64,000 nucleotides of DNA from Spirochaetia bacterium. Its GTDB lineage: Bacteria > Spirochaetota > Spirochaetia > CAKZLE01. A program made the translations under genes and the position numbers. Below are positions 10,324-29,474 of the stretch, piece after piece (the first letter of the stretch is position 1; each line of letters opens with the position of its first letter). The DNA lies in assembly GCA_963677595.1 (NCBI GenBank), contig OY782041.1, forward strand, positions 4,032,001 through 4,096,000. Reading direction: 5' to 3'. The notes under the pieces were generated by a model. That model worked only from the letters and a program-made list of their open reading frames with translations, searched no databases and was not told the DNA's origin.

Positions 10324-10335
10324 ATCACTCCCCTG

Positions 10336-14573: not shown

Positions 14574-14855
14574 ATGATAAATTCCTTTAAAGACAAGGAA
14601 ACCGCAAAGGTCTGGGACCAAACGTACTCGAAGCGATTGCCAAAGGATATCCAGCGCATCGGTCTCAGGAAACTGATCATGCTGCATAAGGCAAGAGACC
14701 TGAATGATCTGAAAGTCCCTCCAGGGAATCGACTGGAATTCCTATCGGGAGATAGAGAAGGTCAGTATAGTATTCGGATCAATGAACAATGGAGAATCTG
14801 TTTCAGGTGGAATCAAGGACAGATTGAAGATGTAGAGATCGTAGATTACCACTAG
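14574..14855 (+). CDS. higB: HigB-type toxin (RelE superfamily)
   Basis: MINSFKDKET, DLKVPPGNRLE, YSIRINEQWRICF, EIVDYH. Confidence 0.93.
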   Translation: MINSFKDKETAKVWDQTYSKRLPKDIQRIGLRKLIMLHKARDLNDLKVPPGNRLEFLSGDREGQYSIRINEQWRICFRWNQGQIEDVEIVDYH

Positions 14856-14864
14856 GAGAAGAAC

Positions 14865-15158
14865 ATGGACAGGATACCTGATATTACACCCGGTGAGATT
14901 TTGTATGAAGAATTCCTCATCCCCATGCATATCACAGCCTATCGTCTCGCAAAAGACACGAAAATACCGGCAACCCGCATTTCAGAAATCATCAAAGGCC
15001 GCAGGAAGATAACAGCAGACACAGCCTTGAGACTTTCTGCCTACTTCGGCAACTCAGCTGAGTTCTGGGTTGGTATCCAGGCTGAATATGATCTCAGACG
15101 CGAGAGACGCAGAATCTCAGATGAACTGATGACTATCCCACATATTGAGGCATCATAG
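14865..15158 (+). CDS. higA: HigA antitoxin
   Basis: PGEILYEEFL, ISEIIKGRRKITADTALRL, SAEFW..Q..YDL. Confidence 0.93.
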   Translation: MDRIPDITPGEILYEEFLIPMHITAYRLAKDTKIPATRISEIIKGRRKITADTALRLSAYFGNSAEFWVGIQAEYDLRRERRRISDELMTIPHIEAS

Positions 15159-15341: not shown

Positions 15342-16304
15342 ATGCAGCATCTCCTTCTCCTATATCTCATTGTAAGTATACTTCCCGGAATAGCTGCCTT
15401 GACCGTCCTCTCTGCTTTGACCACAAGACTCCGGATCAAGGCTCTCACCTATTACCTCATAGCATACGGCAGCTTCACAGTCTCTATCCTCATCAACCTG
15501 ACGATGTTCTATCTGGGGATAAACATCTCAAAAGAGATATCCTACGGTCTCTATATTCTCATCATCATCGGGATCCCCTTTTCCATCCTCATGCATACGA
15601 TGCTGACGTTGGCAGTGAATGAAGCGACAAGACCGCCAGGTAAGCGATTCATTGACGGATTCATCATCCTGATCGGCTTCGTTGAGCTGGGACTGTTCTT
15701 CACTCCCCTATTGATGCAGTATTCCAAGGAGACTCACAGCCTCATCTTCGGCCCGATATACCCTCTCAGCAGCATCATCGAGATCATCAGTATCATCTAT
15801 GCGATCACCCTGGTCATTATTCTCCGCAAGAAGATCACCGATACTACCATCAGGAAGTACATCATCACCCTCATCATCATCATTGCGGTGTTCCTGCCGG
15901 CGATCGGGCATGACCAATTCTTCTTCTTCGGCATCCAAGCCATCAATGAGGTTCCTATCGAACTCATCCTCTCACCGGTCTTCTATATGGTACTCTCCAT
16001 TGTGACGCTGATCTTCGGCACAAGATTCCTGAAATCCACTATCAGACTGGAACGATCGGTGAACTCGACTGCCCGGGAATCGAATCAGCTTACGATAGAG
16101 GCAAAGATACAGGAACTTGCGAAGCGTGCAGGATTATCTGAACGGGAAGTATCTATCATCCCTCTGATAGGCAAAGGTCTTGGGAACAAACAGATCGCAC
16201 TTGAGCTGAATATATCTTCCAAGACAGTAGGGAACCATATCTATAACATCTATAAGAAACTAAAGATCTCAAGCAGATATGAGCTCTTAGCCCTGTTGAA
16301 TTAA
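15342..16304 (+). CDS. Membrane-embedded LuxR-family one-component regulator
   Basis: About 7 hydrophobic segments, then LSEREVSI...GLGNKQIALELNISSKTVGNHIYNIYKKL. Confidence 0.88.
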   Translation: MQHLLLLYLIVSILPGIAALTVLSALTTRLRIKALTYYLIAYGSFTVSILINLTMFYLGINISKEISYGLYILIIIGIPFSILMHTMLTLAVNEATRPPGKRFIDGFIILIGFVELGLFFTPLLMQYSKETHSLIFGPIYPLSSIIEIISIIYAITLVIILRKKITDTTIRKYIITLIIIIAVFLPAIGHDQFFFFGIQAINEVPIELILSPVFYMVLSIVTLIFGTRFLKSTIRLERSVNSTARESNQLTIEAKIQELAKRAGLSEREVSIIPLIGKGLGNKQIALELNISSKTVGNHIYNIYKKLKISSRYELLALLN

Positions 16305-16307
16305 CAT

Positions 16308-16387
16308 ATTCCCCTACTTTTGGGTATCATTCCTCAGTCATTTGAGAACCATTCCCCATTTCTCTCTCCCTATGGTGGTGCTAGGCT
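16308..16387 (+). promoter_or_regulatory. Candidate LuxR/NarL-type binding repeats plus extended -10
   Basis: ATTCCYC at 16308, 16329 and 16351 (21/22 bp spacing) with intervening TGGGTA/TGAGAA; TGcTAGGCT at 16379-16387. Confidence 0.4.
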
Positions 16388-16415
16388 TTAATCATCACCT
16401 TTCAAGGAGTCAGGA

Positions 16416-17030
16416 ATGAAAAGATTAACCGTTTTAGTGCTATTGATCATCTGCAGTACGCTGCTCTATTCAACGCCTCAGGAGATAGACCTAGGCAGCC
16501 TGCAGTCATCAAGGAGTATGTTCTCACTATCTACAGGATATGCTTCCGACCTTTCAGGGGCTCAAGGCTATTCAGCATTCATCAAGTCGTCATCTTTCAT
16601 AGGAGAGAGCCCCTTCTATTATGGATTCGCCTCCCTGCTTGGGATGTTCTCAACTACCGATGAGAGTTTCTTTGAGACGGGAGTCCTGTTCGGGTATACC
16701 GATGAGATCGATGACACGAATCTCTATTACGACCTGTTTTTCGATCTCCTGGTCACAGGAGGCCGTATCAACAATGCGACCTCAACCTACCAGGCATCCG
16801 CCCCTGCTCTCCATCTGGGAATGGCTCTCGGGTTCCCCTCCACTTCTGATATCGATGGGGCCATCTCCATCGCACCAGTCATACGTCCCTACAACCAGCA
16901 GACAGGGCTTTGGGACTTCTCGAGAAGTTATATCAACCTCGGTGTGACCTTCAATATGAAATCCTTGATAGTAGGAAAGCAATTACCATGGAAAGAATTC
17001 CATGAATCAGCAAAGAGCGAAGGGGAATAG
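16416..17030 (+). CDS. Exported hypothetical protein (possible beta-stranded outer-membrane protein)
   Basis: AAGGAG RBS, signal peptide, aromatic/Gly-rich alternating strands. Confidence 0.65.
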   Translation: MKRLTVLVLLIICSTLLYSTPQEIDLGSLQSSRSMFSLSTGYASDLSGAQGYSAFIKSSSFIGESPFYYGFASLLGMFSTTDESFFETGVLFGYTDEIDDTNLYYDLFFDLLVTGGRINNATSTYQASAPALHLGMALGFPSTSDIDGAISIAPVIRPYNQQTGLWDFSRSYINLGVTFNMKSLIVGKQLPWKEFHESAKSEGE

Positions 17031-17031
17031 T

Positions 17032-18837
17032 ATGAAACTTTTTATCAGAGCATTGATCATCTTAGTGATCATCAGCCTGTTAGTCCTTGTGTTCATCACG
17101 TTGGCAGGCTGCACGAGTCTATCGGAGGAACAGGAGGGATCAGTGATACCCCCGACACACAGGTCAATCGGGACACTGACCGATACCATCCATAAAGAGA
17201 TGAAAGCAAAGAATATCACGGGGATTTCCATCTCGGTCATGAACTCTGAAGGTCTCCTCTGGGCTGACGGATTCGGTCTGGCCGATAAAAAGCACAAGGT
17301 TGCTTTTACCAGAGACACTGTTTCCAATGTAGGGTCGGTATCAAAACTCATAACCTCTGCTGCGATCATGCGACTGGTTGAGATGGGTCAGGTTGACCTG
17401 GATGAACCGGTATCAACCTATATCCCGGAATTCAGGCCCGTAGGGGCTGAGCATTCCTCTACACCTATTACCGTACGCATGTTGTTGAACCATGAATCAG
17501 GATTGGAATCTGATGCGTTCCAGGACTTCTTCCTGGGTTATGACCGACCGGACGATTTCCCTGTCCCATATCGGAAGGCTATAGATGCGGTAAATAGAAG
17601 CGGGATCGTAAGAGATCCATACGAAATCTTCTCTTACTGCAATCTCGGATACTCACTGCTGGGTATCATCATCGAGAGAGCGATGGGAGAGAATTTCCAG
17701 CAATCTGCCAAGGAATTAGTCTTCGATCCCCTGGGGATGGATGACTCATCTTTCAATATTGATGACATCCCGGAAGGGAGGATGGCAATGGGATACCTCC
17801 AGGGTAAACCCAAAGAACTCCCCTACATCCGTGACATGCCGGCAGGCAGCCTCAACAGTACAGCGACTGATATGGGGAAGTTCCTGCAAAGCATGCTTGC
17901 TTCATACACAACAGGGGAAGGACTGCTCTCCCGGCAGACTGTGCATGAGATTTTCAGCCCCTCCAATATCGATGTAGCTGCTGATCTTGATTTCAAGATC
18001 GGCCTAACCTGGTGGATAGTAGATCTCAAGGATCTGTCCGGAGAGTTCATCGTAGGACACGGCGGGGACCTCCCTCCCTACCATGCCCTGGTGATCATGC
18101 TGCCCGACAGGGATATATCAGTATTCGCTATGGTCAATTCTGTAGAGGGCGTCGGTTCTTTCAGTTTGGCGAAGATTGTGACAGAAGCTGTCAGGACCTT
18201 CCTGGATGAAGAGGTCGAGCAGAGTATTGCTAAGAAATCAGATCAAAGCCCGATCATAGAGATCCCGGCATCCCTGAAGGCATACCTCATAGGCTATTAT
18301 GCCTCTCCCGTAGGACTTTCCCAGATTAAGGAATCAGGGGGCAAGTTAAAGATCTTCACGTTCAATAAGTGGTTAGATGCATATTACCATGAGGATCACA
18401 GCCTCACTTTGGGATATAAACTCTTTGGGATCTTCCCCATACACATGCCTGTCTTCGATGAGATCTCTATCAGTCTGGAAGATATCAATGATGCACCTGC
18501 AATAAACCTGCGCATCCAGGATATCCTCATCAGTCCTGCAGTGAAGATCGAACCAACACCTATAGATCCCAATTGGATCGCACGTATCGGTAACTATGAG
18601 CCTGTGGAGACTGAAGTCATGCCGCAGTACACTGATTTCACGATCGATATAGACAAGGAGAGTGGGTTTCTCTGTCTCAACCTGAAAAGCGAAGGAGAAT
18701 GGTCAAGATTCCCGCTTCAGACAATCAACACAACTACTGCACAAGTGATGGGAATAGGAAGGAGCCTTGGTGGTTATCTCAGGATCGCCGAAGAGAGTAC
18801 CATCAGTTTCCAGAATTTCACGTTGAGAAAGAAATAG
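17032..18837 (+). CDS. Beta-lactamase-family serine hydrolase, predicted lipoprotein
   Basis: Lipobox-like LAGC, SxxK (GSVSK), LLNHESG, YxN (YCN), HGG; start moved to ATG 17032. Confidence 0.88.
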   Translation: MKLFIRALIILVIISLLVLVFITLAGCTSLSEEQEGSVIPPTHRSIGTLTDTIHKEMKAKNITGISISVMNSEGLLWADGFGLADKKHKVAFTRDTVSNVGSVSKLITSAAIMRLVEMGQVDLDEPVSTYIPEFRPVGAEHSSTPITVRMLLNHESGLESDAFQDFFLGYDRPDDFPVPYRKAIDAVNRSGIVRDPYEIFSYCNLGYSLLGIIIERAMGENFQQSAKELVFDPLGMDDSSFNIDDIPEGRMAMGYLQGKPKELPYIRDMPAGSLNSTATDMGKFLQSMLASYTTGEGLLSRQTVHEIFSPSNIDVAADLDFKIGLTWWIVDLKDLSGEFIVGHGGDLPPYHALVIMLPDRDISVFAMVNSVEGVGSFSLAKIVTEAVRTFLDEEVEQSIAKKSDQSPIIEIPASLKAYLIGYYASPVGLSQIKESGGKLKIFTFNKWLDAYYHEDHSLTLGYKLFGIFPIHMPVFDEISISLEDINDAPAINLRIQDILISPAVKIEPTPIDPNWIARIGNYEPVETEVMPQYTDFTIDIDKESGFLCLNLKSEGEWSRFPLQTINTTTAQVMGIGRSLGGYLRIAEESTISFQNFTLRKK

Positions 18838-19207
18838 GATAACAGGAAGAAAGATTCACGGTACTCAGCTACATCGAATGCTCTACCTACCAGAAAGAAA
18901 GCCAGTCTTCTCTTCATAAAAGAGTGACTGGCTTTCATTCATTGTATCAAATTCGTCTTTTAAAGATGATATTCGTACCCTTTCAGATGAAACCACTGGA
19001 TATAGAGAGCCTGAAATGACAAATACTGGAATGACTGGCAGTGTACAGAACGGCCTAAGCCTGATAACGGAGACGGGTTTCCGTTCAATGACTACAACAA
19101 CGGACTCCCATGGAAGAGACCCAAGACCGTAGTGCTTCATTGGAATCTATCATGTAACGGTAACAACGCTCGACTAGTGTCAGAAATACATGGCTACCAA
19201 CACAGCG

Positions 19208-19239
19208 GATCCCCCTGAATCATACGAATAGGGGGGATC
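19208..19239. terminator. Hairpin terminator downstream of AOR operon
   Basis: GATCCCCCT...AGGGGGGATC imperfect stem about 20 bp after the transporter stop. Confidence 0.5.
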
Positions 19240-19259
19240 TTGATGTACTAGCAAATTGG

Positions 19260-20546
19260 TTATCTCAATATCCGCAGGAAAATGAGCAACTGCATAACCA
19301 TGAGGCCCAATCCAAGATAGACAAATTGCTGCCAGAACCCCCTCTTCCGTTCTGCAGCCTCTGGCATATTCGCGATACAGATTGCCCCGGCATCTGAGAA
19401 CGGCGAGAATCCTGCAAACATCGCTCCTGCTGCAATATATGAGAACAATACGGCAGGGGCCATACTAGTGAAATCACCTATTGAGAAAACCAGCTGCCCT
19501 AACGTCGGTATGACCACACTGAACGAGCTGGAGAACAGGCTCATTACTGCAGCAATAAGCGTAATAATGTATTTTACCAAGTCTGATGCCACATTTGCCT
19601 GCAGCAGCTGAATGAGGGTATCGATAAACCCTGCCTCTGCAGCCATATCTATCATGACCCCCATACCACAGACTAAGATGATCGTAGACATGGGAACCAT
19701 TTTCAGAGCATCCTCTTCAGTGCCGATCTTGAATACCATTCCCAGTATTGCAGCCAACGTACAAACCCACATAATATCCATTTTTGAACGTACGTACGTC
19801 AAGAAACTGATTCCAGGGAAAATTGAAGCCAGAAATGGCGGCACAATGACAAGAATGACCGATGCAATGATAAGAATCAGGGTAGTCCGCTGTTTTTGAT
19901 TGAATGCTTGCGGTCTTTCCAGATCAGTGGCACTGAGCTTATAACATTTTGTGATGATATATAGTCCTGTAAACATGATGAAATGAAGTATCGTAACATT
20001 CCGAAGGGTACTATAGATAATCGTATCTGCCATCTCCGGGAACCCTTGGGTATTGCAGATATTATATACGATCATCCCTCCCATGGATATTGGTGTAAAA
20101 CTACCTGCTGACGCACCAAACAGAATAATCGCAGACCCTAATAGTTTCGGCATTCCGATCTGAGTAGCGATAGACATGACCATCGGGGTAAGGAAGACCA
20201 GGACAGCAAAAGGTCCAGCTCCCATGCCCCCGATAATGAATGCAGTCACCCACAGTACGTATGGAATGATCGGGGCGAAGTTACGAGCCATATAAACAAG
20301 TTTCCTCCCCATGAGATCAATCGTCCCATTGACGATGGCAAATCCATAGAAGAACGTCACCGCGAATAATCGGAAAAACAGACTGATCGGCCAGGATGCG
20401 ATGACCTGTGACGCAGATTTGTCCATAACGAAAATACCGATGATGAAACTGAGAATCAAGGCAATATAGCCAATGTTAACTTTCAGAATAAGGCTTAATA
20501 TGATGGTTAGAATGATTGCGTAAATAAATAGTATTGGTAAACTCAA
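19260..20546 (-). CDS. MatC/SLC13-like (IT superfamily) carboxylate transporter
   Basis: N-terminus VNIGYIAL...WPISLFFRLFAVTFFYGFAIVNGTID matches the MatC_N pattern; C-terminal FSPFSDAGA; AAGGAG RBS before TTG. Confidence 0.8.
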   Translation of the reverse strand: MSLPILFIYAIILTIILSLILKVNIGYIALILSFIIGIFVMDKSASQVIASWPISLFFRLFAVTFFYGFAIVNGTIDLMGRKLVYMARNFAPIIPYVLWVTAFIIGGMGAGPFAVLVFLTPMVMSIATQIGMPKLLGSAIILFGASAGSFTPISMGGMIVYNICNTQGFPEMADTIIYSTLRNVTILHFIMFTGLYIITKCYKLSATDLERPQAFNQKQRTTLILIIASVILVIVPPFLASIFPGISFLTYVRSKMDIMWVCTLAAILGMVFKIGTEEDALKMVPMSTIILVCGMGVMIDMAAEAGFIDTLIQLLQANVASDLVKYIITLIAAVMSLFSSSFSVVIPTLGQLVFSIGDFTSMAPAVLFSYIAAGAMFAGFSPFSDAGAICIANMPEAAERKRGFWQQFVYLGLGLMVMQLLIFLRILR

Positions 20547-20600
20547 AGTGTTATCTCCTTACAAAACGTTTCAATTTTTTATGTTAAGTATTCAATGATT

Positions 20601-20855
20601 TCAGCCGCCGTGCGCCTGACCAAAAACGTATAATCTATCTTCCGGCTTCAATCGGGCATTTCCATCTGCCCGCCTATCGTTCAAAGCCACTACACTGGTA
20701 TTCATAATATCATCCCCGAAGATAGAATGAAGGAAGCCTTCAACCGTTGTCCCCTCTTCTACCTGCATACGTATCTCTTTTGCACGTTCCAAACCTGCGA
20801 AAGGTTCAGCTGGTGATATGTAAGACATAAACATGATATGAATCTTCTGCCCCAT
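20601..20855 (-). CDS. MoaD/ThiS-family sulfur carrier
   Basis: 84 aa ubiquitin-like pattern ending LKPEDRLYVFGQAHGG (C-terminal GG), directly after AOR. Confidence 0.85.
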   Translation of the reverse strand: MGQKIHIMFMSYISPAEPFAGLERAKEIRMQVEEGTTVEGFLHSIFGDDIMNTSVVALNDRRADGNARLKPEDRLYVFGQAHGG

Positions 20856-20858
20856 TTC

Positions 20859-22586
20859 TTATATATCCATTCCATATGGTAATGCGCTTTGGACATCCTC
20901 ATCAGGAATATCAAATACGCGATTATCAACGGACGGCAAGCCCTCTGTATACATGAACTCAGGCAATCGATCATCCTTCTGGGTGAATCCAGCCAGACGA
21001 TTAAACTCTTTTTCCATACCCAGACACTCTGTCGCCAATGCAAACAATTTGCCTCTATCCCAATCACCACCGAACTTGCCCTTCATGATGTCTGCCAGCA
21101 GAGGCCAGCTGTCAGGATTTCCTGCGCAGGAGCTTGCGAAAATGCATGCTCCCATCAGATCAAAGAGCGCAAAAATTACCTGCATTGTATTGGATACTTT
21201 TACTTTACCCTCATTCTCATAGGAATTTGGATCCATGTTCCTAGTCGGCGCATTTCCTGCTGTATGGTCTGCCCCCATCGGAGAGATCGCATAGGTGATA
21301 CCAGTACCTTTCAATCCTCTGGGATCATAGCCCGCCATGGACTGTTTCTTGACGGTCGGTATCCTGCTCACCCCGAAATGCGTTCCAGCATAATAGGTAC
21401 CGTTACCTAATACTCGGCCAAGCTCAGTACCTTCTTGCAGTTCTTTGAATAACCCGCGGACTGCCTCCTGGTCTCCCCATCCGATGATTCCGGCTTCCAT
21501 GCACACAGCAAGGGTACAGCCAAGTTCCATGGTATCAAGTCCTAGATCGTCGCATTGACGATCCATCCAGGCGATGAAATCGAGGTCATCGATTTCACAG
21601 TTCGGTCCACAGAGTGCAATTGTTTCATATTCCAGGGCTGAAGTCACATGGTTACCTGCAGGATCAACATACTCGTTGGAACATTTTATAACACAGCCTC
21701 TCTGGCACGCATGGCCAGTCTTCCCTCCGCGTTCGTTGATCATCTCTGCCATCTTCTCACCGGATACATTCCCTGCCTTATCCCAACGTCCATCACTGTA
21801 ATTCTTTACGGGCATCCATCCCATGGTATTACAGATCCTCACCAATGAGGCAGTACCCAGGTAGGGCAGCACGTCTTTGACCGTCGGGACGTTACGCAAT
21901 AGCTGGATATATTCACGATTGGCTTTGAGAAACGTATCCTTATCATAATATGAGGCCGGGACCTTCACCTTATCCTGCTTCAACACTATTGCCTTGATGT
22001 GCTTACTTCCCATCACGGCACCCATTCCACCTCGCGCAGCCGCACGAGCCGGATATTTATCAAGATCTGTGATCTGGACGGAAGAATTGAGATACTGCCG
22101 CTCTCCAGCGATGCCAATCGATATAACGGCAATCTTATCCCCGAAATCTTCCATCAATTTCTCTGTCAGAGCGTAATTATTCAAACCCATATAGGAATCT
22201 GCCTCTATAAGCTCCGCATCGTTATCCGTTATTTTGATAATGTACCATGATTCATCTGCAGGTTTTCCCTCCAGGACAATCGCCTTTATACCGAGAGATC
22301 CCATCATCCCTGCAGCAATACCACCAGAATTAGCTTCCTTGATACCGCCAGTCAGAGGACTCTTGCCCCCTATCGACAGACGAGAGGAAGTCGTGAATGC
22401 TGTATTGTTTAGAAGTCCATTACAACATATGAATTTATTTTCAGGCCCTAACGGATCACATTGAGGATTCACTTCATCAAGCATCAGTTTGACGATAAGA
22501 CTTCTACCACCATACATCTGCATCTCTTGGGGAAATTCCTCCCATACTAATTCCTTTCTATCAGCTTTATAACTTAGCCTGTTCAT
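20859..22586 (-). CDS. aor: Aldehyde:ferredoxin oxidoreductase (tungsten/molybdopterin AOR family)
   Basis: KSPLTGGIKEANSGG, AARGGMGAVMGSKHIKAI, CQRGCVIKC, EYET, DDLGLDTM, YDPRG, GADHT. Confidence 0.93.
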   Translation of the reverse strand: MNRLSYKADRKELVWEEFPQEMQMYGGRSLIVKLMLDEVNPQCDPLGPENKFICCNGLLNNTAFTTSSRLSIGGKSPLTGGIKEANSGGIAAGMMGSLGIKAIVLEGKPADESWYIIKITDNDAELIEADSYMGLNNYALTEKLMEDFGDKIAVISIGIAGERQYLNSSVQITDLDKYPARAAARGGMGAVMGSKHIKAIVLKQDKVKVPASYYDKDTFLKANREYIQLLRNVPTVKDVLPYLGTASLVRICNTMGWMPVKNYSDGRWDKAGNVSGEKMAEMINERGGKTGHACQRGCVIKCSNEYVDPAGNHVTSALEYETIALCGPNCEIDDLDFIAWMDRQCDDLGLDTMELGCTLAVCMEAGIIGWGDQEAVRGLFKELQEGTELGRVLGNGTYYAGTHFGVSRIPTVKKQSMAGYDPRGLKGTGITYAISPMGADHTAGNAPTRNMDPNSYENEGKVKVSNTMQVIFALFDLMGACIFASSCAGNPDSWPLLADIMKGKFGGDWDRGKLFALATECLGMEKEFNRLAGFTQKDDRLPEFMYTEGLPSVDNRVFDIPDEDVQSALPYGMDI

Positions 22587-22625
22587 ATACCACCTCTCCT
22601 TTTGGCTAATTATATTTCAAATTAT

Positions 22626-22641
22626 AGCAAAAACAATGCCA
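22626..22641 (-). promoter_or_regulatory. sigma54 (-24/-12) promoter of aor operon
   Basis: TGGCATTGTTTTTGCT with exact GG/GC spacing, about 40 bp upstream of the aor ATG. Confidence 0.85.
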
Positions 22642-22901
22642 ATTCCTAATTTATAAGTTCTGAAGAACATGCAATACCAGAAATACTGATTGCTTACAAT
22701 TCATTACCACGCATCTAGACAGTGTCCTGAAAAAGGTTGAACACGAATCATCCCACTCGTATCTCTTCAATACCTGCCCCCTAAGCATATTTTACGTATC
22801 CTTATACCGATTGCTATGAGATCTCGATTCTATTGGAGAAATTATCCAATATCAGCTCTTCGCTGAGAATTTCCTGCTCTCCTCAATTAAGACTGACATA
22901 T

Positions 22902-22949
22902 TGTAAGACTTGTTTACAAGCATGATATAGCATGTAAAGTATGTTTCCA
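22902..22949. promoter_or_regulatory. Paired enhancer (UAS) sites for the sigma54 activator, aor side
   Basis: TGTAAG-acttg-TTTACA (22902) and TGTAAA-gtatg-TTTCCA (22933), 31 bp apart. Confidence 0.75.
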
Positions 22950-22957
22950 TTATTTAT

Positions 22958-22986
22958 TTGCTTCCGGTATGTTCTTAGGTTATAAT
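22958..22986 (+). promoter_or_regulatory. sigma70 promoter of the activator gene
   Basis: TTGCTT-17 bp-TATAAT. Confidence 0.65.
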
Positions 22987-23057
22987 CAAAAACTTGATGA
23001 AACTTAGTGGTTTACATCCGATAATGTATGGTCTGGATGACCTAAGGAGCTGTAGAC

Positions 23058-24554
23058 ATGGCGCATGAAGTAATGAACGCTTTTATAGCTAATTTGGACA
23101 AGAATGGTCTGGATGGGAAAAACTTTGTAGACTCCATGAGAGACACATTGAAATATATGGAGATTCCAGATATCGCATATTTGATCGTCAACAGAAGCTA
23201 CCAGATAGTATACTGTACGGATAACTATCCAGCATTGATCGAGATAGATACTTCGGTAAACGGGATAATCGGTAAGACGATCTCAAACCTGATCGGGGAG
23301 TTCCTCTATGATAAGGATCCTTCCATTATAGACAAGAAATGCCTGGCCTCAGCCATTAATGCATTTCAAACCAAATCCTGTGTACACTCTCTTCGAAGGC
23401 TGCTCAGCGGTAAGGAACTCATGGTGTATGCAAAGCCTATCCTCGACAGAGCAGGAGAAGTCCTCTGTGTCTTGAACAGTGTCATCAACGTCACGGACGT
23501 CGATCAACTGCGGAACAAAGTCACTACATTTTATGAGGTACTGGGAATCAACATCTCATCGAACTTTAAAGTAAAGATGATCTCTGAGAGTGAGGTACAT
23601 AAAAAAACGATTGCACGAGCAAATCGAGCTGCCGAATTCGAAGCGAACGTACTCATCACAGGAGAGAGTGGAAGCGGTAAGGATGTACTTGCTAAGTATA
23701 TCCATTTCTGCAGTAAGCGCAGAAATAAGAGATTGATTCAGATAAATTGCTCAGCCATACCAGAAAGCTTGTTAGAGAGTGAACTTTTTGGATATGAGGG
23801 AGGCGCATTCTCCGGAGCGAAACGCAAAGGGAAACTCGGGCTTCTGGAGCTGGCGAATCATAGTACCATCTTCTTAGACGAGATTGGAGATATCCCGCTA
23901 GCAACGCAGGTAAAACTGCTTAATTTCATCCAGGACCGAGCGTTCTATCGTGTAGGGGGAACAGAGAAGATCGAGGTCGATATTCGTATCATAGCGGCTA
24001 CCAATGCAGATCTCAGGCTGAAGATTGATAATAACCAGTTTAGGGAGGACCTGTATTATAGACTAAATACCATCCCGATCAGTATTGCCCCGTTGAGAAA
24101 TCGCAGGGAAGATATAATCCCTCTTATTGAACAATTCGAATATGAAAGTAATCTGCAATATAAAATGGATAAACATTTTTCCATCGAGGCAAAAAGCTTC
24201 CTCCTATCCCTTGACTGGCCGGGAAATATCAGGGAGATGCAGCATTGTGTAGAGCGTTTGATGATCCTGACAGAGAAGGAGACCATTGAGGTTGACGATA
24301 TCCTAGCTGATCAGCAATATGACGGCAAACAGAAATCCACTGTTCATACCAATAGTGATGAGGATGAGGGAGTGCTCGTGAAATCCCTGAAAGCTGTTGA
24401 ATACCATCTACTGAAGAAGACTGCTGAAGAGTATGATTCCAGTCGAAAGATCGCAGCGGTCCTAGGTATTAGTCATACTGCGGTCAACTCCAAATTAGCT
24501 AAGTATGGTATTGCCATCAACGGAAAGAAGAAATCACAGCCAGGAATCTTGTGA
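23058..24554 (+). CDS. sigma54-dependent enhancer-binding activator (PAS-like + AAA+ + TyrR-like HTH)
   Basis: GESGSGKD, ESELFGYE.GAFSGA, FLDEIG, RIIAATN, FREDLYYRL, WPGNIRE, HTH SSRKIAAVLGISHTAVNSKLAKYG. Confidence 0.93.
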   Translation: MAHEVMNAFIANLDKNGLDGKNFVDSMRDTLKYMEIPDIAYLIVNRSYQIVYCTDNYPALIEIDTSVNGIIGKTISNLIGEFLYDKDPSIIDKKCLASAINAFQTKSCVHSLRRLLSGKELMVYAKPILDRAGEVLCVLNSVINVTDVDQLRNKVTTFYEVLGINISSNFKVKMISESEVHKKTIARANRAAEFEANVLITGESGSGKDVLAKYIHFCSKRRNKRLIQINCSAIPESLLESELFGYEGGAFSGAKRKGKLGLLELANHSTIFLDEIGDIPLATQVKLLNFIQDRAFYRVGGTEKIEVDIRIIAATNADLRLKIDNNQFREDLYYRLNTIPISIAPLRNRREDIIPLIEQFEYESNLQYKMDKHFSIEAKSFLLSLDWPGNIREMQHCVERLMILTEKETIEVDDILADQQYDGKQKSTVHTNSDEDEGVLVKSLKAVEYHLLKKTAEEYDSSRKIAAVLGISHTAVNSKLAKYGIAINGKKKSQPGIL

Positions 24555-24821
24555 GCATGATCGATATCTAAGGATGAATCCATCTTGATACCATTGGCCG
24601 TACATTGGTGATGGGATCTGAAACTGCAAGCCTAGAGCAACAAGGGAAAAACTGATACAACGGTATGAGAACTTTTCGATATCTGCAGCATCTCTGCTCC
24701 TTGATATCTGCCAAAACTCCATGATCCAGGATTCAAAATCCAGTTGAGCTCAATAGATTCTGTATGACATGCCAGACAGTAAAAACAGCAGCAATCTAGA
24801 ACAAAGGGATTAATAGAATAT

Positions 24822-24869
24822 TGTAAACATTTTTTACGAAAATATAGATTCCTGTAAACATGTCTTGCA
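24822..24869. promoter_or_regulatory. Paired enhancer (UAS) sites, GRE side
   Basis: TGTAAA-cattt-TTTACG (24822) and TGTAAA-catgt-CTTGCA (24853), 31 bp apart. Confidence 0.75.
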
Positions 24870-24931
24870 GCATATACTGATTATGAGACAAATCGATAGG
24901 ACTGCATTGGTTACTCACCATATTCTTTCTA

Positions 24932-24947
24932 TGGCATGATAATTGCT
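24932..24947 (+). promoter_or_regulatory. sigma54 (-24/-12) promoter of GRE operon
   Basis: TGGCATGATAATTGCT with exact spacing, 47 bp before ATG 24995. Confidence 0.88.
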
Positions 24948-24994
24948 TATTACTTTTACATATTTCTTAATCTTTCTAAAGGAGGAGATTAATT

Positions 24995-27433
24995 ATGGCT
25001 GAAATGATGGAACTAGCCGAAAAAGAACGACTAGGGATGGTCACAGCAATGGGCAGCACGGACAGAATCCGGAGACTGAGCCATAAGTCCTACACAACAC
25101 CACAATCAATCTGTTTACACCGAGCAAGAGCTTATACTGAAGTTTTTGCTGAAACAGAAGGTGAACCAATAGAATTGAGACGTGCAAAAGGCTTCAAAAG
25201 AGCATTGGAGACTGTACCGGTTCTCATTGAAGAAGATGAACTTGTTGTTGGTAATCGTGCTTGTCGTATCCGAAGCGTGCCTGTCATTCCAGAGTGTCAT
25301 GGGGCTTGGCTTCAATGGGATCTGGAAAAGCTTCCGACTCGTGAGCAGGATTCTTTTGAAGTACCCCCAGAGCAGATGAAAGAGGCAAAAGAACTTCTGG
25401 CATTCTGGAAAGGAAAAACCATCTTTGATGAATGGGCTGCAACAGTGCCTGGGAATATGGCAGACAAACTGCTTGGGACAGGATGGGCCGATATTGCCTG
25501 CGGTGTCTTTTTCCTGGGGTACCATTTCACCCCACCATGGGAAAAAATCGTAAATGGGGGAATAAAGGCTTTTGAAGATGAAGTAGATGCACGCTTGGAC
25601 AGCCTTGATTACCTGAAAAATCCACAGGATATGGGAAAAGAGGTCATTCTTAAGGCCTTTAAAACCATCATCGAAGGGATTAAGATCTTCGCTGCCCGGT
25701 ATGCTGAAAAAGCACGGGAACTTGCTGCTACTGAAAAGAATGCTACAAGAAAACAGGAGTTACTCCGAATCGCAGAAAACTGTGATCGTGTTCCCTATTA
25801 TCCAGCCAGAAATTATTACGAAGCCATACAGTCAGTCTGGTTTGTACATACCTTGATGCATGTTGAGGGAACTGGGCCCGTCTATACGTTGGGACGTTTT
25901 GATCAATACATGTATCCATTTTATAAAGCCGATTTAGAAAGTGGTGCCATCACGAAAGAAGAGGCGGTGGAACTACTTGAGAATTTCTATATCAACTGCA
26001 ACAACAACCTGTTCCTGTATGATACACAGTCTGCCTATAATTCCGCAGGTTTCACACAGTACCAGGTAATCTCTCTTGGTGGAGTAGATGAAACCGGCAA
26101 AGATGCTTCTAATGTTATCACTTATCTCTGCCTTGATGCTGCAAAGACCCTAAGGACTGTACAGCCAGACCTATCATTACTGTGTCACCCCAGGGAAACG
26201 CCGTATGAATTGAAAATGAAAGCTGCTGAACTGGTAAGGGAAGGACTGGGCCTGCCAAAGTTCCATAGTACAGAAACGATCAAGACCGGCTTAATGTCCC
26301 TGGGATATACCCTGGAAGAAGCCCGTATGGGATGGGTCAGGGGCTGTAGTGAATTGTACGGTCCGGGATCAAAGCAGTACGGGCATACAGCAGGGGCTTT
26401 TGTGAACATCACCATGGCTCTTGAAGCTGCTCTGTTCAATGGGATCAAGCAGGTTAAAGGACAAAAATGGAGTGGCGAACAAATTGGGTTAGCAACTGGC
26501 AATGCAGAGGATTTCTCTAGCTACGAGGAACTGGTCGACGCATTGAAGGCACAGTTGACGTTCATGCTCCAGGAATCGCACATTGGCGGATCGTATATGG
26601 AATTGGCTCAGAAGAATTTCCCGCAGCTCCTCCAGAGTCTGTTCACTGACGATTGTATAGGTTCATGCTTACCTGCGAATGCCGGCGGGGCAAAAATCAA
26701 TGTCGGTCCAGGTCTGGCAATCTGTAGTGGATGGGCAACGATCGCTGACTCACTCGCTGCCATCAAGAAGCTGGTCTTCGAAGAGAAACGAATTACCATG
26801 CATGAGCTGTTAGAAGCACTTCAGGCTGACTTTGAAGGCTATGGAGCAATCCAGAAGATGCTGTTGAACAATGCCCCTAAATTCGGGAATGACATTGACT
26901 ATGTAGATGACATTGCACGGGACATATTCAAGCATGTACATGATGAAGGAAGGAAACTGGTTGGGATCAATGGGAATATCAACAGTGTAGGTACTGATAT
27001 ATCTGTCTCCCACATCATATTTGGTTCCTTTATAGGTGCTACACCAGATGGTAGGAATGCAGGAAAAGCTCTTTCTGACAATGTCGGACCATCTGACCAG
27101 AGAGATGTCAACGGTCCGGTAGCCCACATCAATTCTGTGACTAAAATGCCAATTGAACGAGAATTCGGGTCGATCCATAACATCTATCTGACCAATATCG
27201 ACACCGAGGACAAGATGCATGACATGATTCATCTGGTTGATACCTACCATATGCGAGGAGGCCATCACCTGCAGATAAACTGTATTGACAAGAACGTGTT
27301 ACTAGATGCACAGAAGACACCGGAAAAATACCCTTCACTGATAGTCAGGGTTGCCGGATACTGTGCATATTTCAACGATCTGTCAAAGTATGTTCAGGAT
27401 TATATTATATCTCGAACTTCCGTGAACTTCTAA
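24995..27433 (+). CDS. Glycyl radical enzyme, PFL2/glycerol-dehydratase-like clade, unknown substrate
   Basis: 812 aa; DELVVG, LGRFDQYMYPFY, Cys loop RGCSE (Cys451/Glu453), PKFGND, GATPDGR, RVAGY (Gly788); AAAGGAGG RBS. Confidence 0.95.
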   Translation: MAEMMELAEKERLGMVTAMGSTDRIRRLSHKSYTTPQSICLHRARAYTEVFAETEGEPIELRRAKGFKRALETVPVLIEEDELVVGNRACRIRSVPVIPECHGAWLQWDLEKLPTREQDSFEVPPEQMKEAKELLAFWKGKTIFDEWAATVPGNMADKLLGTGWADIACGVFFLGYHFTPPWEKIVNGGIKAFEDEVDARLDSLDYLKNPQDMGKEVILKAFKTIIEGIKIFAARYAEKARELAATEKNATRKQELLRIAENCDRVPYYPARNYYEAIQSVWFVHTLMHVEGTGPVYTLGRFDQYMYPFYKADLESGAITKEEAVELLENFYINCNNNLFLYDTQSAYNSAGFTQYQVISLGGVDETGKDASNVITYLCLDAAKTLRTVQPDLSLLCHPRETPYELKMKAAELVREGLGLPKFHSTETIKTGLMSLGYTLEEARMGWVRGCSELYGPGSKQYGHTAGAFVNITMALEAALFNGIKQVKGQKWSGEQIGLATGNAEDFSSYEELVDALKAQLTFMLQESHIGGSYMELAQKNFPQLLQSLFTDDCIGSCLPANAGGAKINVGPGLAICSGWATIADSLAAIKKLVFEEKRITMHELLEALQADFEGYGAIQKMLLNNAPKFGNDIDYVDDIARDIFKHVHDEGRKLVGINGNINSVGTDISVSHIIFGSFIGATPDGRNAGKALSDNVGPSDQRDVNGPVAHINSVTKMPIEREFGSIHNIYLTNIDTEDKMHDMIHLVDTYHMRGGHHLQINCIDKNVLLDAQKTPEKYPSLIVRVAGYCAYFNDLSKYVQDYIISRTSVNF

Positions 27434-27451
27434 CTGAGTAAACTTGACCGG

Positions 27452-28411
27452 GTGATAACAATGACGAAGGAAACCAAAACGAACCTAAGGAACCGAGACC
27501 AGGCATTCATCTTCAAGATTGATAGATATGCAACTCATGATGGTCCCGGGATCAGAACTACTATCTTCTTTAAAGGCTGTCTGATGAACTGCACATGGTG
27601 CTCCAATCCTGAGAGCCAGAAGACAACAGCTGAGCTTGGTTTCCTCAAGATGAAGTGTGTTGGCTGTGGCACCTGTATCAACAGCTGCCATGCCGATGCT
27701 CTTTCCCTGAAAGATGAAAAAGCGACCATTAATAGGGAACTGTGCGATAACTGCTTCGACTGTGTGCCAGTGTGTCCATCAAACGCACTGCAGATCTATG
27801 GCTACGAGGCTACTTTACCGGAATTAATGGATATCTTGAATCGAGATAGGCACATCTACCGTCGTTCCGGCGGTGGTGTGACCTTGACCGGTGGCGAACC
27901 GACTCTGCAGTATTCTTTCGTGAAAAAATTGCTGGAAGAATGCAGGCGGGTCGGAATCCATACAACGTTGGAAACTTGCGGGTTCTCGAGTCCAGAAGAT
28001 TTCAAGCAGTTATTACCCTATGTTAACTGGTTATATTTTGATCTGAAGCATTGTGACCCGGATCACCATCGAAAGGTAACAGGGAACTCAAACAAGATCA
28101 TCTTGCAGAATCTTACCTTTGCATCCCACTACATGCAGGAACATGGCAAACCTCTGGTAGTCAGACAAGTTGTTGTTCCTGGAATTAATGATACTCAGTG
28201 GATCGGCAGGATGGTTGAGCTGATTAGTCAGTTACCCTATGTGACAGCCATGGAGTTTTTACCATACCATAATTATGGTATGGACAAGTATGCCGCTATC
28301 GGGAAGGTGTACGATCTCACGGATGTAAGACCTCCCGCAGAATCAGACCTGAAAACATATGTTGAAATGGCAGAAGCCAGAGGTCTGAAATGTACTATTG
28401 GAGGACTGTAG
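27452..28411 (+). CDS. Glycyl-radical activating enzyme (radical SAM with ferredoxin insert)
   Basis: HDGPGIRT, CLMNCTWCSNPE, extra CVGCGTCINSC and CDNCFDCVPVCP, GGVTLTGGEP, LPYH. Confidence 0.95.
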   Translation: MITMTKETKTNLRNRDQAFIFKIDRYATHDGPGIRTTIFFKGCLMNCTWCSNPESQKTTAELGFLKMKCVGCGTCINSCHADALSLKDEKATINRELCDNCFDCVPVCPSNALQIYGYEATLPELMDILNRDRHIYRRSGGGVTLTGGEPTLQYSFVKKLLEECRRVGIHTTLETCGFSSPEDFKQLLPYVNWLYFDLKHCDPDHHRKVTGNSNKIILQNLTFASHYMQEHGKPLVVRQVVVPGINDTQWIGRMVELISQLPYVTAMEFLPYHNYGMDKYAAIGKVYDLTDVRPPAESDLKTYVEMAEARGLKCTIGGL

Positions 28412-28463
28412 AGTAGATGAATCAATAGAACCAATAGTATAAAAAAACAAATAGGAGACAATA

Positions 28464-29105
28464 ATGAGTGATATTAAAAAGGCAACCAGTGCGCCTGTAG
28501 TAATGTTTATAATAGCTATTCTGGCATTCGTAGATGGAATTAACCTGCTCGGTTTCTTACCACCAGAAACAACACTTCTCCGAGGAGTCTTCGCAACCCT
28601 AGCCTATCCTACATATTATTTTGCAGCAAAGAACCACCTAGAAATCGGTGATGAGCTTTTTGCCAGGACGTTCTTATTCTTTGGATTATTCTTCTCTTTG
28701 ACAGGAATCATCATGCTGGTACAAATGTTCGCAACAATGGCAGGCATCCCCTATGATACCAAGATGATGGGCGTGGTATGGTTTGTAGTAGTTCTTTATC
28801 TGCTATCTGTAATGCCTGCATTCTGGTATGGCGATAAGGTCTGCCTGCTGTTCATGATCACTGCAACACTCGGCTTCCTGATAATGTCAATCGTCAACTT
28901 CCAGTTCAGTTTTAGCTTTTGGCCAGGATTTTTCGTCATTGCCGGGATTTCCTTCTCAATTACCGGTCTAACTGCTGCGTATTTCGGGATGTTCCTCATG
29001 CTGGTCCCTCTCGGAGTTGTTCTGCCATTAGGAAAACCAATCTTCAAAAAGAAAGAAACCGTTTCTGCAGGTTCAGTAAAAATAGCAACGTCGGAAGAAA
29101 TCTGA
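28464..29105 (+). CDS. 6-TM membrane protein, divergent AceTr (GPR1/FUN34/YaaH, SatP-like) candidate
   Basis: ATSAPVVMF resembles ANPAPLGL; EIGDELFARTFLFFGLFF resembles the GNTFG...F..YG.FW segment. Confidence 0.55.
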   Translation: MSDIKKATSAPVVMFIIAILAFVDGINLLGFLPPETTLLRGVFATLAYPTYYFAAKNHLEIGDELFARTFLFFGLFFSLTGIIMLVQMFATMAGIPYDTKMMGVVWFVVVLYLLSVMPAFWYGDKVCLLFMITATLGFLIMSIVNFQFSFSFWPGFFVIAGISFSITGLTAAYFGMFLMLVPLGVVLPLGKPIFKKKETVSAGSVKIATSEEI

Positions 29106-29127
29106 TAGTTTCATAATCAATAATCAT

Positions 29128-29157
29128 CCCCCCTCAAAAGGATTTCTTATGAGGGGG
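29128..29157 (+). terminator. Hairpin terminator after GRE operon
   Basis: CCCCCTCA-AAAG...CTTA-TGAGGGGG stem. Confidence 0.55.
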
Positions 29158-29390
29158 TCTGTTATATCGTCTTACATCCTCAAGAGAATAGCATCGGTAT
29201 ATAATCAAACTGTTAGATTATTCATGGAGCCAAAAACCCCTACGTTGAATCCGTTGCTTTTTTTTCTTCACAAAGAATAAGTATACCCGATGGGGTGACG
29301 ATTTAACCTAATTGGGCTAAAAATGAAAAAGCCAATCTCCCATTTATAGAATATCAGCTTTTAATTTGTATCAATTTCGTCTTATAAAGA

Positions 29391-29474
29391 TGCCGGAAAC
29401 GAGACTTGAACTCGTACAGCTTTAAGGCCGGGGGATTTTAAGTCCCCTGTGTCTACCAATTCCACCATTCCGGC
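29391..29474 (-). tRNA. tRNA-Leu (TAA)
   Basis: GCCGGAATGGTGGAATTGGTAGACAC-AGGGGA-CTTAAAA-TCCCC...GAGTTCAAGTCTC-GTTTCCGGCA; long variable arm; CCA not encoded. Confidence 0.97.

Follow-up and report, generated by a model that had tools for sequence, protein, structure and literature searches.

We identified a 10.4-kb low-GC islet of exactly seven genes in a Spirochaetia genome, between a tRNA-Leu gene and a repeat of the tRNA-Leu 3′ flank. The islet pairs an oxygen-sensitive glycyl radical enzyme (GRE) with an aldehyde:ferredoxin oxidoreductase (AOR), which together are likely to convert a small hydroxy acid to an acid of higher oxidation state, independently of coenzyme A (CoA).

Gene content and control signals of the islet

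The islet lies in a 64-kb window, the whole stretch of DNA that was analysed (Table 1). The first-pass annotation described two divergent operons (aor–moaD–MatC-like and GRE–activase–channel) around one enhancer-binding protein (EBP), and the open reading frames bear this out; the boundaries, from tRNA-Leu to the flank repeat, are new. The repeat-bounded segment contains just the seven islet genes, and we found no internal repeat copy that splits it. Third-position GC content (GC3) is 0.45–0.51 in the islet genes and 0.68–0.78 in three host genes. In run X1, the islet is a single 10,634-nt contig at a depth of 34, its flanks have depths of 70–113 with strain variants, and contig depth halves near the left boundary repeat; the islet seems to be absent from a co-occurring strain. 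The clade to which the GRE belongs is missing from all five same-order genomes examined. The att-like repeat, the shift in GC3 and the strain-variable depth strengthen the reading of the islet as one unit, and the seven genes with their matching control signals were likely gained together as one 10-kb piece.

Table 1 Features of the islet and its boundaries (positions in the 64-kb window)
Feature	Position	Strand	Details
att-like copy of tRNA-Leu 3′ flank	18941..18969	-	25/29 identical; followed by hairpin; left islet boundary
Closing hairpin, aor operon	19208..19239	-	z -3.1; no clear U tract
MatC-like/CitMHS (SLC13-type) carboxylate carrier, 428 aa	19260..20546	-	PF07158 E 6e-31; PF03600
MoaD/ThiS-like sulfur carrier (WorX-type), 84 aa	20601..20855	-	C-terminal GG
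W/Mo aldehyde:ferredoxin oxidoreductase, 575 aa	20859..22586	-	AFOR_N + AFOR_C
Sigma54 -24/-12 site, aor operon	22627..22641	-	41 bp before AOR start
Enhancer pair TGTAAA-N5-TTTACA	22902..22949 (starts 22902, 22933)	.	31 bp apart
Sigma54 EBP	23058..24554	+	Sigma54_activat + HTH_50; PAS-like N terminus
Enhancer pair TGTAAA-N5-TTTACA	24822..24869 (starts 24822, 24853)	.	31 bp apart
Sigma54 -24/-12 site, GRE operon	24932..24946	+	49 bp before GRE start
GRE, 812 aa	24995..27433	+	PF02901 + PF01228; H177, C451-S-E453, G788
GRE activase	27452..28411	+	TIGR02494 above cut-off; radical SAM CX3CX2C + ferredoxin-like insert
SatP/AceTr-fold six-helix channel, 213 aa	28464..29105	+	Divergent subfamily
Closing hairpin, GRE operon	29129..29157	+	z -3.5; no clear U tract
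Right repeat copy (tRNA-Leu 3′ end + flank)	29365..29393	-	
tRNA-Leu(TAA)	29391..29474	-	Insertion site

As first described, each operon has a −24/−12 site, a matching enhancer pair and a closing hairpin, although neither hairpin is among the terminators listed by a terminator scan. The two sigma54 sites are the sole matches with at most one mismatch in the window, and such a site arose in 4 of 3,000 (aor) and 1 of 3,000 (GRE) shuffles of the intergenic regions. Enhancer pairs arose in none of the 3,000 shuffles of each region, and the 4.3-Mb genome holds the two islet pairs, one weaker pair and no others. Promoters and enhancer pairs thus match across both operons, in keeping with the claim of one regulatory unit. 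The EBP combines a PAS-like sensor, an AAA+ domain with a GAFSGA loop and a TyrR-type helix–turn–helix (HTH); the host has rpoN, and this single EBP would likely switch on both operons.

The sigma54 promoter, the TGT-N10–12-ACA enhancer type and the aor–moaD order resemble the AorR regulon of Clostridiales (a sigma54 EBP with aor–moaD), which the available text of PMC6615313 links to alcohol synthesis; the likeness is one of promoter and enhancer type and gene order. The same text assigns this enhancer type to 15 clostridial EBP groups. It lists neither a GRE nor MatC for the AorR regulon, and its main text contains neither ‘glycyl’ nor ‘pfl’; our literature search found no description of GRE–AOR coupling. 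The left half is not new as a regulon type, going by the same part of PMC6615313. It is very improbable that an AorR-like EBP–aor–moaD–matC module and an unrelated GRE operon, under different activators, came to lie side by side in an island by chance. The solitary AorR aor–moaD regulons elsewhere (in the available text of PMC6615313), an EBP–aor–moaD set without a GRE (locus L165), the generic enhancer motif type, the 11 EBP matches in the genome and the lack of conserved partner genes would all fit such an origin, but the 17-bp palindromes paired at 31-bp spacing lie before these two operons only (bar the one weak pair), and the islet is unsplit and one piece in run X1.

A GRE from an unnamed clade

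The GRE has the marks of the pyruvate formate-lyase-like class: both domains, invariant G788 and C451, and an adjacent radical SAM activase. Its structure model has a pLDDT of 94.7. The clade is rare and unnamed (82 relatives at 47–80% identity) and separate from the characterised GREs compared; identity to solved GREs is about 35% at most, and the GRE scores under every NCBIfam equivalog cut-off, as expected of the uncharacterised enzyme first proposed.

Among 78 aligned core clade members, C451 and H177 are each conserved in 78 and E453 in 75; three members lack the Cys-loop Glu. H177 aligns with the His that donates a proton to the departing hydroxyl, His164 in glycerol dehydratase (GD) and His160 in HypD. 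GD expels water through His164, and six of six C–O eliminases retain CXE (PMC13450708). A clade profile scored propanediol dehydratase (PD) at 729 bits, GD at 720 and CutC at about 700, followed by HypD (637), C–S lyases (586–620), AAD (538) and HPAD (345); the isomerases HplG, YbiW and PflD reached 518–589 bits, against 720–729 for the diol dehydratases. By profile, then, the GRE is closest to diol dehydratases and CutC, and the His/Cys/Glu triad agrees with the eliminase-type site and aldehyde-forming nearest relatives proposed at the outset. The CXE motif is not eliminase-specific, and is also found in isomerases and HPAD.

Like GD of C. butyricum (1R8W/1R9D) and PD (5I2A, 9RCO), the GRE has the fold (TM 0.93–0.94), the CXE motif, a His at the water-expelling position and an activase with a ferredoxin insert, and these two rank first by profile. 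Unlike them, it is 34–35% identical, sits in a separate clade with other pocket residues replaced, and lies with an AOR rather than beside an alcohol or acylating aldehyde dehydrogenase or a microcompartment. The residues that we take to be the second His/Ser pair, Asp and Tyr of GD (H281/S282/D447/Y640) are replaced, with P295/V296, A466 and D668 at those places. We therefore reject assignment to either dehydratase: identity is 35%, the GD pocket is incomplete and the clade stands apart from P0109.

CutC (5A0U, 5FAU), an aldehyde-forming 1,2-eliminase, is the best single-sequence PDB match, and Thr465 aligns with its active-site Thr. The GRE is not CutC, however, with 550 bits against a TIGR04394 cut-off of 1050 and no microcompartment (BMC) genes in the genome. 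Several aromatic positions that presumably form the CutC cage differ, and His177 stands where CutC has an Asp that we assume binds TMA. HypD (6VXC) shares the His/Cys/Glu residues, and S350 and S670 align with its carboxylate-binding small hydroxyl residues S334 and T645; the S670 position presumably also corresponds to a Ser of GD. HypD was nevertheless rejected (560 bits; NF043068 cut-off 1100): its D278, which binds the amine, and D339 are P295 and Q355 here, it falls in a different clade, and the islet lacks a P5C reductase. No conserved Arg or Lys carboxylate anchor was found, R449 occurring in 21 and S350 in 17 of 35 members.

Further candidates that we rejected are HpsG (544 bits; NF048011 cut-off 1000), HpfG (444 bits; NF048009 cut-off 1000) and the isomerases YbiW, PflD and HplG (29–31% identity; no PTS/aldolase or ornithine-pathway neighbours). 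YbiW-like and PflD-like sequences, labelled from motif and score, fall in another clade. The C–S lyases IslA and IseG anchor sulfonate with two Arg and one Gln (PMC13450708); the GRE is 30–33% identical to them, and among the pocket positions tabulated for its clade none carries a conserved Arg.

Decarboxylase models fit poorly (IAD 390 of 1100 and HPAD 280 of 1150 bits), which bears on a reverse order of steps. The AOR would then make an acid such as an arylacetate from its aldehyde, and the GRE would decarboxylate or cleave that acid. An aromatic, hydrophobic pocket (F172, F173, Y176, F178, F353, Y356 and F469), the TyrR-type HTH, the use of the Cys-loop Glu by HPAD and IAD, its loss from three clade members and the oxidation of phenylacetaldehyde by P. 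furiosus AOR (PMC13328260) speak for this order. We nevertheless consider it improbable: those scores are far under the eliminase model scores, AAD and HPAD are among the lowest-ranking entries by clade profile, no HPAD-type small-subunit reading frame was found beside the GRE, and the GD-type His is invariant in the clade.

The AOR and the genomic neighbourhoods of relatives

The AOR is a single-subunit Class I WOR (P. furiosus AOR match, E 2e-67; best homologues 49–59% identical). It has four cluster Cys and the EYET and DXXGLD motifs, to which we ascribe their presumed roles in AOR; WorX lies nearby, and there is no gene for a small FeS subunit, as the Class I definition requires. The enzyme is intact. 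It resembles P. furiosus AOR and Class I WORs (PMC13328260) in its one catalytic subunit, ThiS-like neighbour and pterin and cluster motifs but, unlike P. furiosus AOR, belongs to a clade of ~570-aa bacterial enzymes in which the Cys spacing is CX3CX3C, and has no solved close relative. The 84-aa MoaD/ThiS-like protein has no Pfam match and is 39% identical to a 77-aa reading frame that clusters with a gene for a paralogous AOR. The host has MoeA, and its best TupA- and TupB-like genes fall below cut-offs (218/400 and 209/320); from the Tup-like genes, we predict that the cofactor contains W rather than Mo.

The recurring AOR, MatC and channel partners sought for the GRE were not found. An AOR adjoins 2 of 27 clade GRE loci (0.9 expected by chance; P(≥2) = 0.22), so GRE–AOR linkage does not exceed the chance level in hosts this rich in AORs, and MatC, channel and EBP adjoin none of the 27. 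Both AOR-adjoining loci belong to an outer subfamily, with AORs ~28% identical to that of the islet; at L116, GRE, activase and AOR form one same-strand run. None of the inner-subfamily loci examined has an AOR, MatC, channel or EBP, and around the nearest AOR relative for which context was available (53%, G595), the ~40 kb examined contain no GRE. Loci of a related clade of split GREs carry either an acylating aldehyde dehydrogenase (L010) or, in its stead, an AOR plus CoA-transferase (L007, L006). Neighbours of clade GREs include esterases, lactamase-like hydantoinases, hydroxy- and amino-acid racemases and TRAP systems.

These neighbourhoods also bear on whether the two enzymes act in sequence. 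The operons could instead be co-regulated while the GRE, of eliminase or isomerase type, turns a secondary alcohol into a ketone that host enzymes consume, and the AOR clears a side-product or co-occurring aldehyde. At an inner-subfamily locus (L113) with an identical R449/D668/S350/S670 set and a near-identical active site, a gene for a beta-keto acid cleavage enzyme follows the GRE, which hints at a ketone product; SDRs adjoin 5 of 26 clade GRE loci, isomerases and HpsG also keep CXE, the GRE–AOR linkage is not enriched, and Class I WORs are mostly described as aldehyde detoxifiers (PMC13328260), whereas the islet AOR is proposed as a pathway enzyme. Nonetheless, this arrangement is fairly unlikely: the islet has no ketone-handling enzyme, the AOR operon itself encodes a carboxylate carrier and has the enhancer pair seen before the GRE operon, and the isomerases score below the diol dehydratases.

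Proposed pathway and transport

On balance, we slightly favour a single predicted co-regulated pathway in which the GRE dehydrates its substrate to an aldehyde and the AOR oxidises it to an acid, free of CoA. The activase would install a radical on Gly788 that passes to Cys451, which would take hydrogen from the CH2OH carbon of the substrate; Glu453 would deprotonate that hydroxyl and His177 protonate the neighbouring leaving OH, as in GD. The GRE would thus likely remove water from a small hydroxylated substrate, and the putatively W-dependent AOR would likely oxidise the aldehyde with electrons passing to ferredoxin, then to Rnf or [FeFe]-hydrogenase. Such ferredoxin sinks exist in the genome (two RnfD-family and five [FeFe]-hydrogenase-family matches). 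As first noted, the islet holds no dehydrogenase or shell gene; BMC has no match in the whole genome, and all seven Aldedh matches lie outside the islet. In the part of PMC11489063 available, the HpfG–HpfD–HpfXYZ pathway of Enterococcus gilvus for DHPS similarly proceeds from GRE dehydration of a dihydroxy anion through an aldehyde to an acid that is probably exported, but its oxidation step requires NAD+ and CoA and brings a gain of ATP, whereas that of the islet would be CoA-free and ferredoxin-linked.

The channel, co-transcribed with the GRE, would most simply admit a monocarboxylate substrate, and the MatC-like carrier, which shares a transcript with the AOR, export a dicarboxylate product. 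Because co-transcription fits this direction better, the channel probably imports and the carrier exports, opposite to the first-pass annotation, whose direction was at odds with its own example of glycerate to malonate. Monocarboxylate import and dicarboxylate export together point, tentatively, to a terminal dihydroxy acid converted through a semialdehyde to a diacid. Our preferred example, 3,4-dihydroxybutyrate to succinate via succinate semialdehyde, is speculative and quite improbable taken singly; glycerate to malonate is equally speculative and less probable still, as the carrier is just 26–33% identical to plasmid-borne SLC13 permeases (~26% to Sinorhizobium homologues), and a search of the 95%-complete genome for the alpha subunit of malonate decarboxylase gave none. 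Of the original interpretation, the regulatory unit, uncharacterised GRE, eliminase site, AOR and ferredoxin sinks are supported; the conserved gene set, malonate and the transport direction are not. It is possible, if doubtful, that a clade of GREs whose substrates are dihydroxy (or hydroxy-amino) carboxylic acids forms with a tungsten AOR a minimal CoA-free, shell-free energy module. If so, the islet GRE would be the first such member of its clade, and the variable pockets of ~80 clade members would span a substrate series across sediment and groundwater anaerobes.

The MatC-like carrier scores 108 bits for PF07158 (cut-off 23). The AlphaFold model of the channel resembles the SatP succinate–acetate channel (5YS3, 5ZUG) in its six-helix fold (TM 0.73–0.75, E 1e-5), and the ESM Atlas also leads to Gpr1/Fun34/YaaH. 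Unlike SatP, to which it is 15–18% identical, the channel has no Pfam or NCBIfam match (PF01184 none at E 0.1; weak in 1 of 23 relatives, E 0.007). The N-terminal signature motif of AceTr/SatP, with the sequence we take it to have, is degenerate in the channel. Members of its subfamily lie in short-chain acyl-CoA clusters at 9 of 13 loci, and one adjoins the EBP–aor–moaD set at L165.

A seven-gene islet between tRNA-Leu repeats

The seven genes form a real, well-delimited and uncharacterised module and occupy a discrete islet, a point absent from the first-pass annotation. All seven open reading frames (ORFs) sit where that annotation placed them, and Pfam and NCBIfam bear out their identities, with reservations on two of them. 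Pfam gives no match for the MoaD-like ORF, whose assignment rests on the GG at its C terminus and on a 39% match to an ORF clustered with a paralogous aldehyde:ferredoxin oxidoreductase (AOR); direct comparison with a ThiS-family paralogue gave no alignment. The second reservation concerns the channel, described as AceTr-like, which has no family match by sequence: a word-based search recovered only the protein itself among 591 candidates, and a profile of 23 aligned sequences had no match among PDB sequences. The fold search was the sole approach that resolved the channel; its AlphaFold model, built on 23 remote relatives, has SatP as the only match at E < 0.001, and the ESM Atlas agrees with a SatP-type assignment. 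Neither the sensor region of the enhancer-binding protein (EBP) nor the MatC-like protein has a meaningful PDB sequence match.

Both proposed σ54 sites are present, 41 bp (AOR) and 49 bp (glycyl radical enzyme, GRE) ahead of the start codons, and are the only matches in the window at one mismatch or fewer; shuffling the two regions produced such promoters in 4/3000 and 1/3000 cases. The matching enhancer pairs also hold up, with a common 17-bp palindrome and 31-bp spacing; no pair arose in shuffled sequence (0/3000), and genome-wide there is only one other, weaker pair. Both closing hairpins fold, with z about −3, but lack U tracts. The host genome encodes rpoN. We found no IHF consensus between enhancers and promoters and, in the window, no copy of the 18-bp TyrR-type box.

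The 29 bases at the 3′ end of tRNA-Leu(TAA) are repeated, with four mismatches, on the far side of the islet (table). At up to seven mismatches, the only other copies in the 4.3 Mb lie at tRNA-Leu(CAG) and 30 kb and 42 kb beyond it, and one of the displaced copies carries a tRNA fragment. Such a pattern at both tRNA-Leu genes would be expected of attachment sites, and the tRNA-Leu(CAG) region is likely to be a second tandem island array. No integrase lies between the islet's two repeats. Among compared genomes, G003 has a flank resembling the repeat after the tRNA and G002 and G004 do not; the stretches examined of G001 and G005 do not include the tRNA. GC3 is 0.45–0.51 in the seven islet genes versus 0.68–0.78 in three host genes. 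In sequencing run X1, from which the window itself may derive, the islet is a single 10,634-nt contig at depth 34 with no variants, and both flanks stand at depth 70–113 with variant contigs, a pattern that, contig depth being a crude measure, fits a second strain without the islet. A joined form without the islet is not among the contigs listed for the three runs compared.

Positions of features in the window, in the host genome (G000) and in compared loci (L handles)
Feature	Position	Content
Low-GC operon	2400-11715	three sulfatase-like ORFs, ABC sugar-type transporter, Crp-like regulator, purine nucleoside phosphorylase-like gene (read off translations)
Gene group	12000-15158	amidase split into three ORFs; IS200 transposase within TetR-type gene; presumed HigBA-like pair
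Just beyond left repeat	15342-18837	membrane LuxR-type regulator, hypothetical protein, 611-aa beta-lactamase-fold serine hydrolase
Islet contig, run X1	18758-29391	
Left repeat	18941-18969	
MatC-like carrier	19260-20546 (-)	
Channel	28464-29105 (+)	213 aa
tRNA-Leu(TAA)	29391-29474	
tRNA-Leu(CAG) region	G000:C1:2179322-2221400	tRNA, then same 29-bp flank; displaced copies at 2209171, 2221339
Three family GREs	L104:7879-16894	
Split GRE	L006:9968-12529	
Split GRE	L007:9914-12522	
Split GRE	L010:3191-5828	
Split GRE	L022:2352-4974	
Split GRE	L025:80-2653	
Activase-GRE-MatC-like operon	L118:8613-13422	
Activase-GRE-MatC-like operon	L170:8765-13435	
Orphan GRE operon	L041:1512-8689	
Orphan GRE operon	L047:121-6967	

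A candidate pathway and its glycyl radical enzyme

In the reading that we favour, as somewhat probable, the activator would switch on the aor and GRE operons together, the GRE would form an aldehyde by dehydrating a vicinal-diol-type substrate, and the AOR would oxidise this aldehyde to the acid with ferredoxin. The channel, co-transcribed with the GRE, would import that enzyme's substrate, and the MatC-like carrier, co-transcribed with the AOR, would remove the acid; the first-pass annotation had import by MatC and exit through the channel, and co-transcription suggests the reverse. The scheme would suit a dihydroxy acid as starting compound and a diacid as end product, a tentative possibility. 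Conversion of 3,4-dihydroxybutyrate to succinate would be a long shot, and the glycerate-to-malonate example proposed earlier is more doubtful still; esterase, lactamase and keto-acid neighbours suit the former somewhat better.

The GRE is uncharacterised, as had been claimed: it scores under every equivalog cut-off (bits/cut-off: HypD 560/1100, CutC 550/1050, HpsG 544/1000, HpfG 444/1000, IAD 390/1100 and HPAD 280/1150) and its identity to solved GREs peaks at about 35%. Among the 120 matches listed of 981, at least 82 relatives are 47–80% identical, those few that are named belonging to assemblies of Chloroflexota/Dehalococcoidia, Syntrophorhabdales, Thermodesulfobacteriota, Peptococcaceae and Pseudomonadota. 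In a tree of 44 rows (a quick IQ-TREE search without bootstrap, containing no cut-off-passing CutC) this family is a clade with support of 100, set apart from rows annotated as glycerol dehydratase (GD), HypD and YbiW/PflD-like, and is nested in a broader group without a name, to which a naturally split GRE also belongs. The clade is rare. Its pattern is absent from five of five same-order genomes, leaving the window's own genome alone of the six in its order, and occurs in 3/401 genomes in the class of G042 and 1/96 in that of G041; no GRE above 37% identity to that of the islet was found in 40 relatives, and 77 of 80 genome-scan loci hold non-family GREs at 33–38%. Across the GRE superfamily, a new clade has tended to mean a new reaction.

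Pocket residues, assigned from alignments, include H177, C451 and G788, invariant in the 78 core members, and E453, kept in 75 of them; most remaining positions vary, which suggests a series of substrates across the clade. Among characterised enzymes, profile comparison puts propanediol dehydratase, GD and CutC closest, each aldehyde-forming. A ketone-forming GRE accompanied by a detoxifying AOR is a rival reading that we regard as rather unlikely. The available part of a 2026 review (PMC13450708) describes CXE as shared by eliminases, isomerases and HPAD and names GD His164 as the water-expelling acid; H177 aligns with this His. That the AOR instead supplies an acid to a decarboxylase GRE seems improbable. 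HypD contacts its carboxylate through S334, Y450 and T645 and its amine through D278 (PMC7077986, available text). These residues align with S350, F469, S670 and P295 of the islet GRE, a mapping that appears compatible with an amine-free hydroxy acid as the dehydration substrate; only 17 of 35 inner-subfamily members retain S350. A carboxylate-anchoring role for R449 was rejected: the position is variable (R/K/Q/D), and an acidic residue at 667/668 tends to accompany it, as would fit a structural pair. Three family members (P0017, P0018 and P0065 / L003) have C-S-G replacing CXE and may have different chemistry.

Gene neighbourhoods and partner families

Our 27 family loci comprise 22 of 27 stretches of a first set, 3 of 80 and two from further sets, with one fragmented locus (L094), two lacking a GRE ORF (L095 and L098) and two duplicates of L104 (L105 and L106) dropped; 18 are at least 6 kb, and near-duplicates include L002/L107 and L001/L112. 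The recurring partners anticipated earlier did not emerge. An AOR lies beside two of the 27, against 0.9 expected by chance from 61 AFOR_N matches in 13.4 Mb of four host genomes (P of at least two = 0.22): in L116 it is directly 3′ of GRE–activase and shares their strand, and in L109 it lies about 5 kb upstream. MatC-like, channel and EBP genes each accompany the family GRE at 0/27 loci. No other locus examined has the islet's combination of genes, although its parts are all of known kinds. With this singularity on one side and the enhancers common to both operons on the other, we rate chance juxtaposition as very improbable.

When 26 of the loci were clustered, the neighbours that recurred were LIV-type binding proteins (6), SDRs (5), hydantoinase/oxoprolinase A (3), BD-FAE esterases (3), class III aminotransferases (2), glycine-reductase B (2) and TRAP (2); four family loci have racemase-family genes, and L113 has a beta-keto acid cleavage enzyme. 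Loosely, these hint at small chiral hydroxy or amino acids freed from esters, lactones or lactams. A single 18-kb contig (L104) carries three paralogous family GREs with differing pocket residues, beside two proteins of 380–432 aa that have no Pfam/NCBIfam match and recur in L002 and L114.

The AOR is single-subunit with intact motifs and a ThiS-like neighbour, and its sequence places it in Class I of the scheme in PMC13328260, the available part of which gives a defined physiological role for only 5/92 WOR clades. Its best homologues are 49–59% identical; the sole close one with context (1/112 genomes) has no GRE nearby. A σ54 aor–moaD regulon with TGT-N10-12-ACA enhancers is already known, that of AorR (PMC6615313, partial text). 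The channel subfamily occurs in 28/112 genomes; of its best 13 loci, nine are thiolase/crotonase/acyl-CoA dehydrogenase-type clusters, a context that links it to small monocarboxylates, and one of the nine runs on into EBP–aor–moaD. At loci L157–L165, in the class of G445, butyrate-type acyl-CoA gene clusters contain a SatP-fold channel subfamily that has no annotation. The MatC-like gene is found in two of 60 relatives, each time directly behind a different uncharacterised GRE (L118 and L170). The host genome has TupAB-like, MoeA, Rnf-family and hydrogenase-family genes and seven Aldedh matches, all of the latter outside the islet; it contains no BMC or malonate decarboxylase alpha match.

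The closest described pathway, HpfG–HpfXYZ, oxidises its aldehyde via a CoA ester (PMC11489063, available text), whereas the AOR route proposed here would be CoA-free. Our literature search, mostly of titles and abstracts and with few subscription papers, found no description of GRE–AOR coupling or of this GRE clade; PFL, MatC and sigma54 terms are absent from three supplements of PMC13328260, whose full neighbourhood dataset may lie outside them. Entire GRE clades are without experimental validation, according to the accessible portion of PMC13450708. The islet is compact and self-contained: it encodes the GRE and its activase, the oxidoreductase, two transporters and a candidate ligand-sensing activator, the ligand of which could lead to the substrate. 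If true, the coupling would add a CoA-free, ferredoxin-yielding exit to GRE aldehyde chemistry and give functions together to two unstudied clades, one of GREs and one of AORs.

Split and other uncharacterised GREs

The naturally split GREs of five genomes form one clade, 35–37% identical to the islet GRE, and its position beside the islet family is moderately supported. A barrel ORF of about 750 aa is followed by a separate glycyl-radical-domain ORF of 91–109 aa and, in four of five, by the activase; spare-part proteins are known for PFL only, in the part of PMC13450708 available. Their neighbours include an acylating aldehyde dehydrogenase or an AOR, CoA-transferase III and crotonase: L010 has a σ54 activator, acylating aldehyde dehydrogenase and crotonase, and L007 and L006, from genomes with 9–10 AORs each, have an AOR, CoA-transferase and dehydratase (L022 and L025 cover stretches too short for this comparison). 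This alternation of acylating dehydrogenase and AOR would be expected of an aldehyde product, but the clade is distant from the islet GRE and AORs are abundant in the two genomes that have one here.

The GREs of the activase–GRE–MatC-like operons in two host relatives (L118 and L170), 67% identical to each other, represent a second uncharacterised family, with a GCLD Cys loop and an Arg/Lys-rich pocket segment. L041 and L047 carry an operon for an orphan GRE with a GCME loop, an activase, a thiolase-like protein and an AMP-binding ligase. One 5-Mb Chloroflexi assembly (G043, the source of L003 and L120) has 24 GRE and 21 AOR matches.
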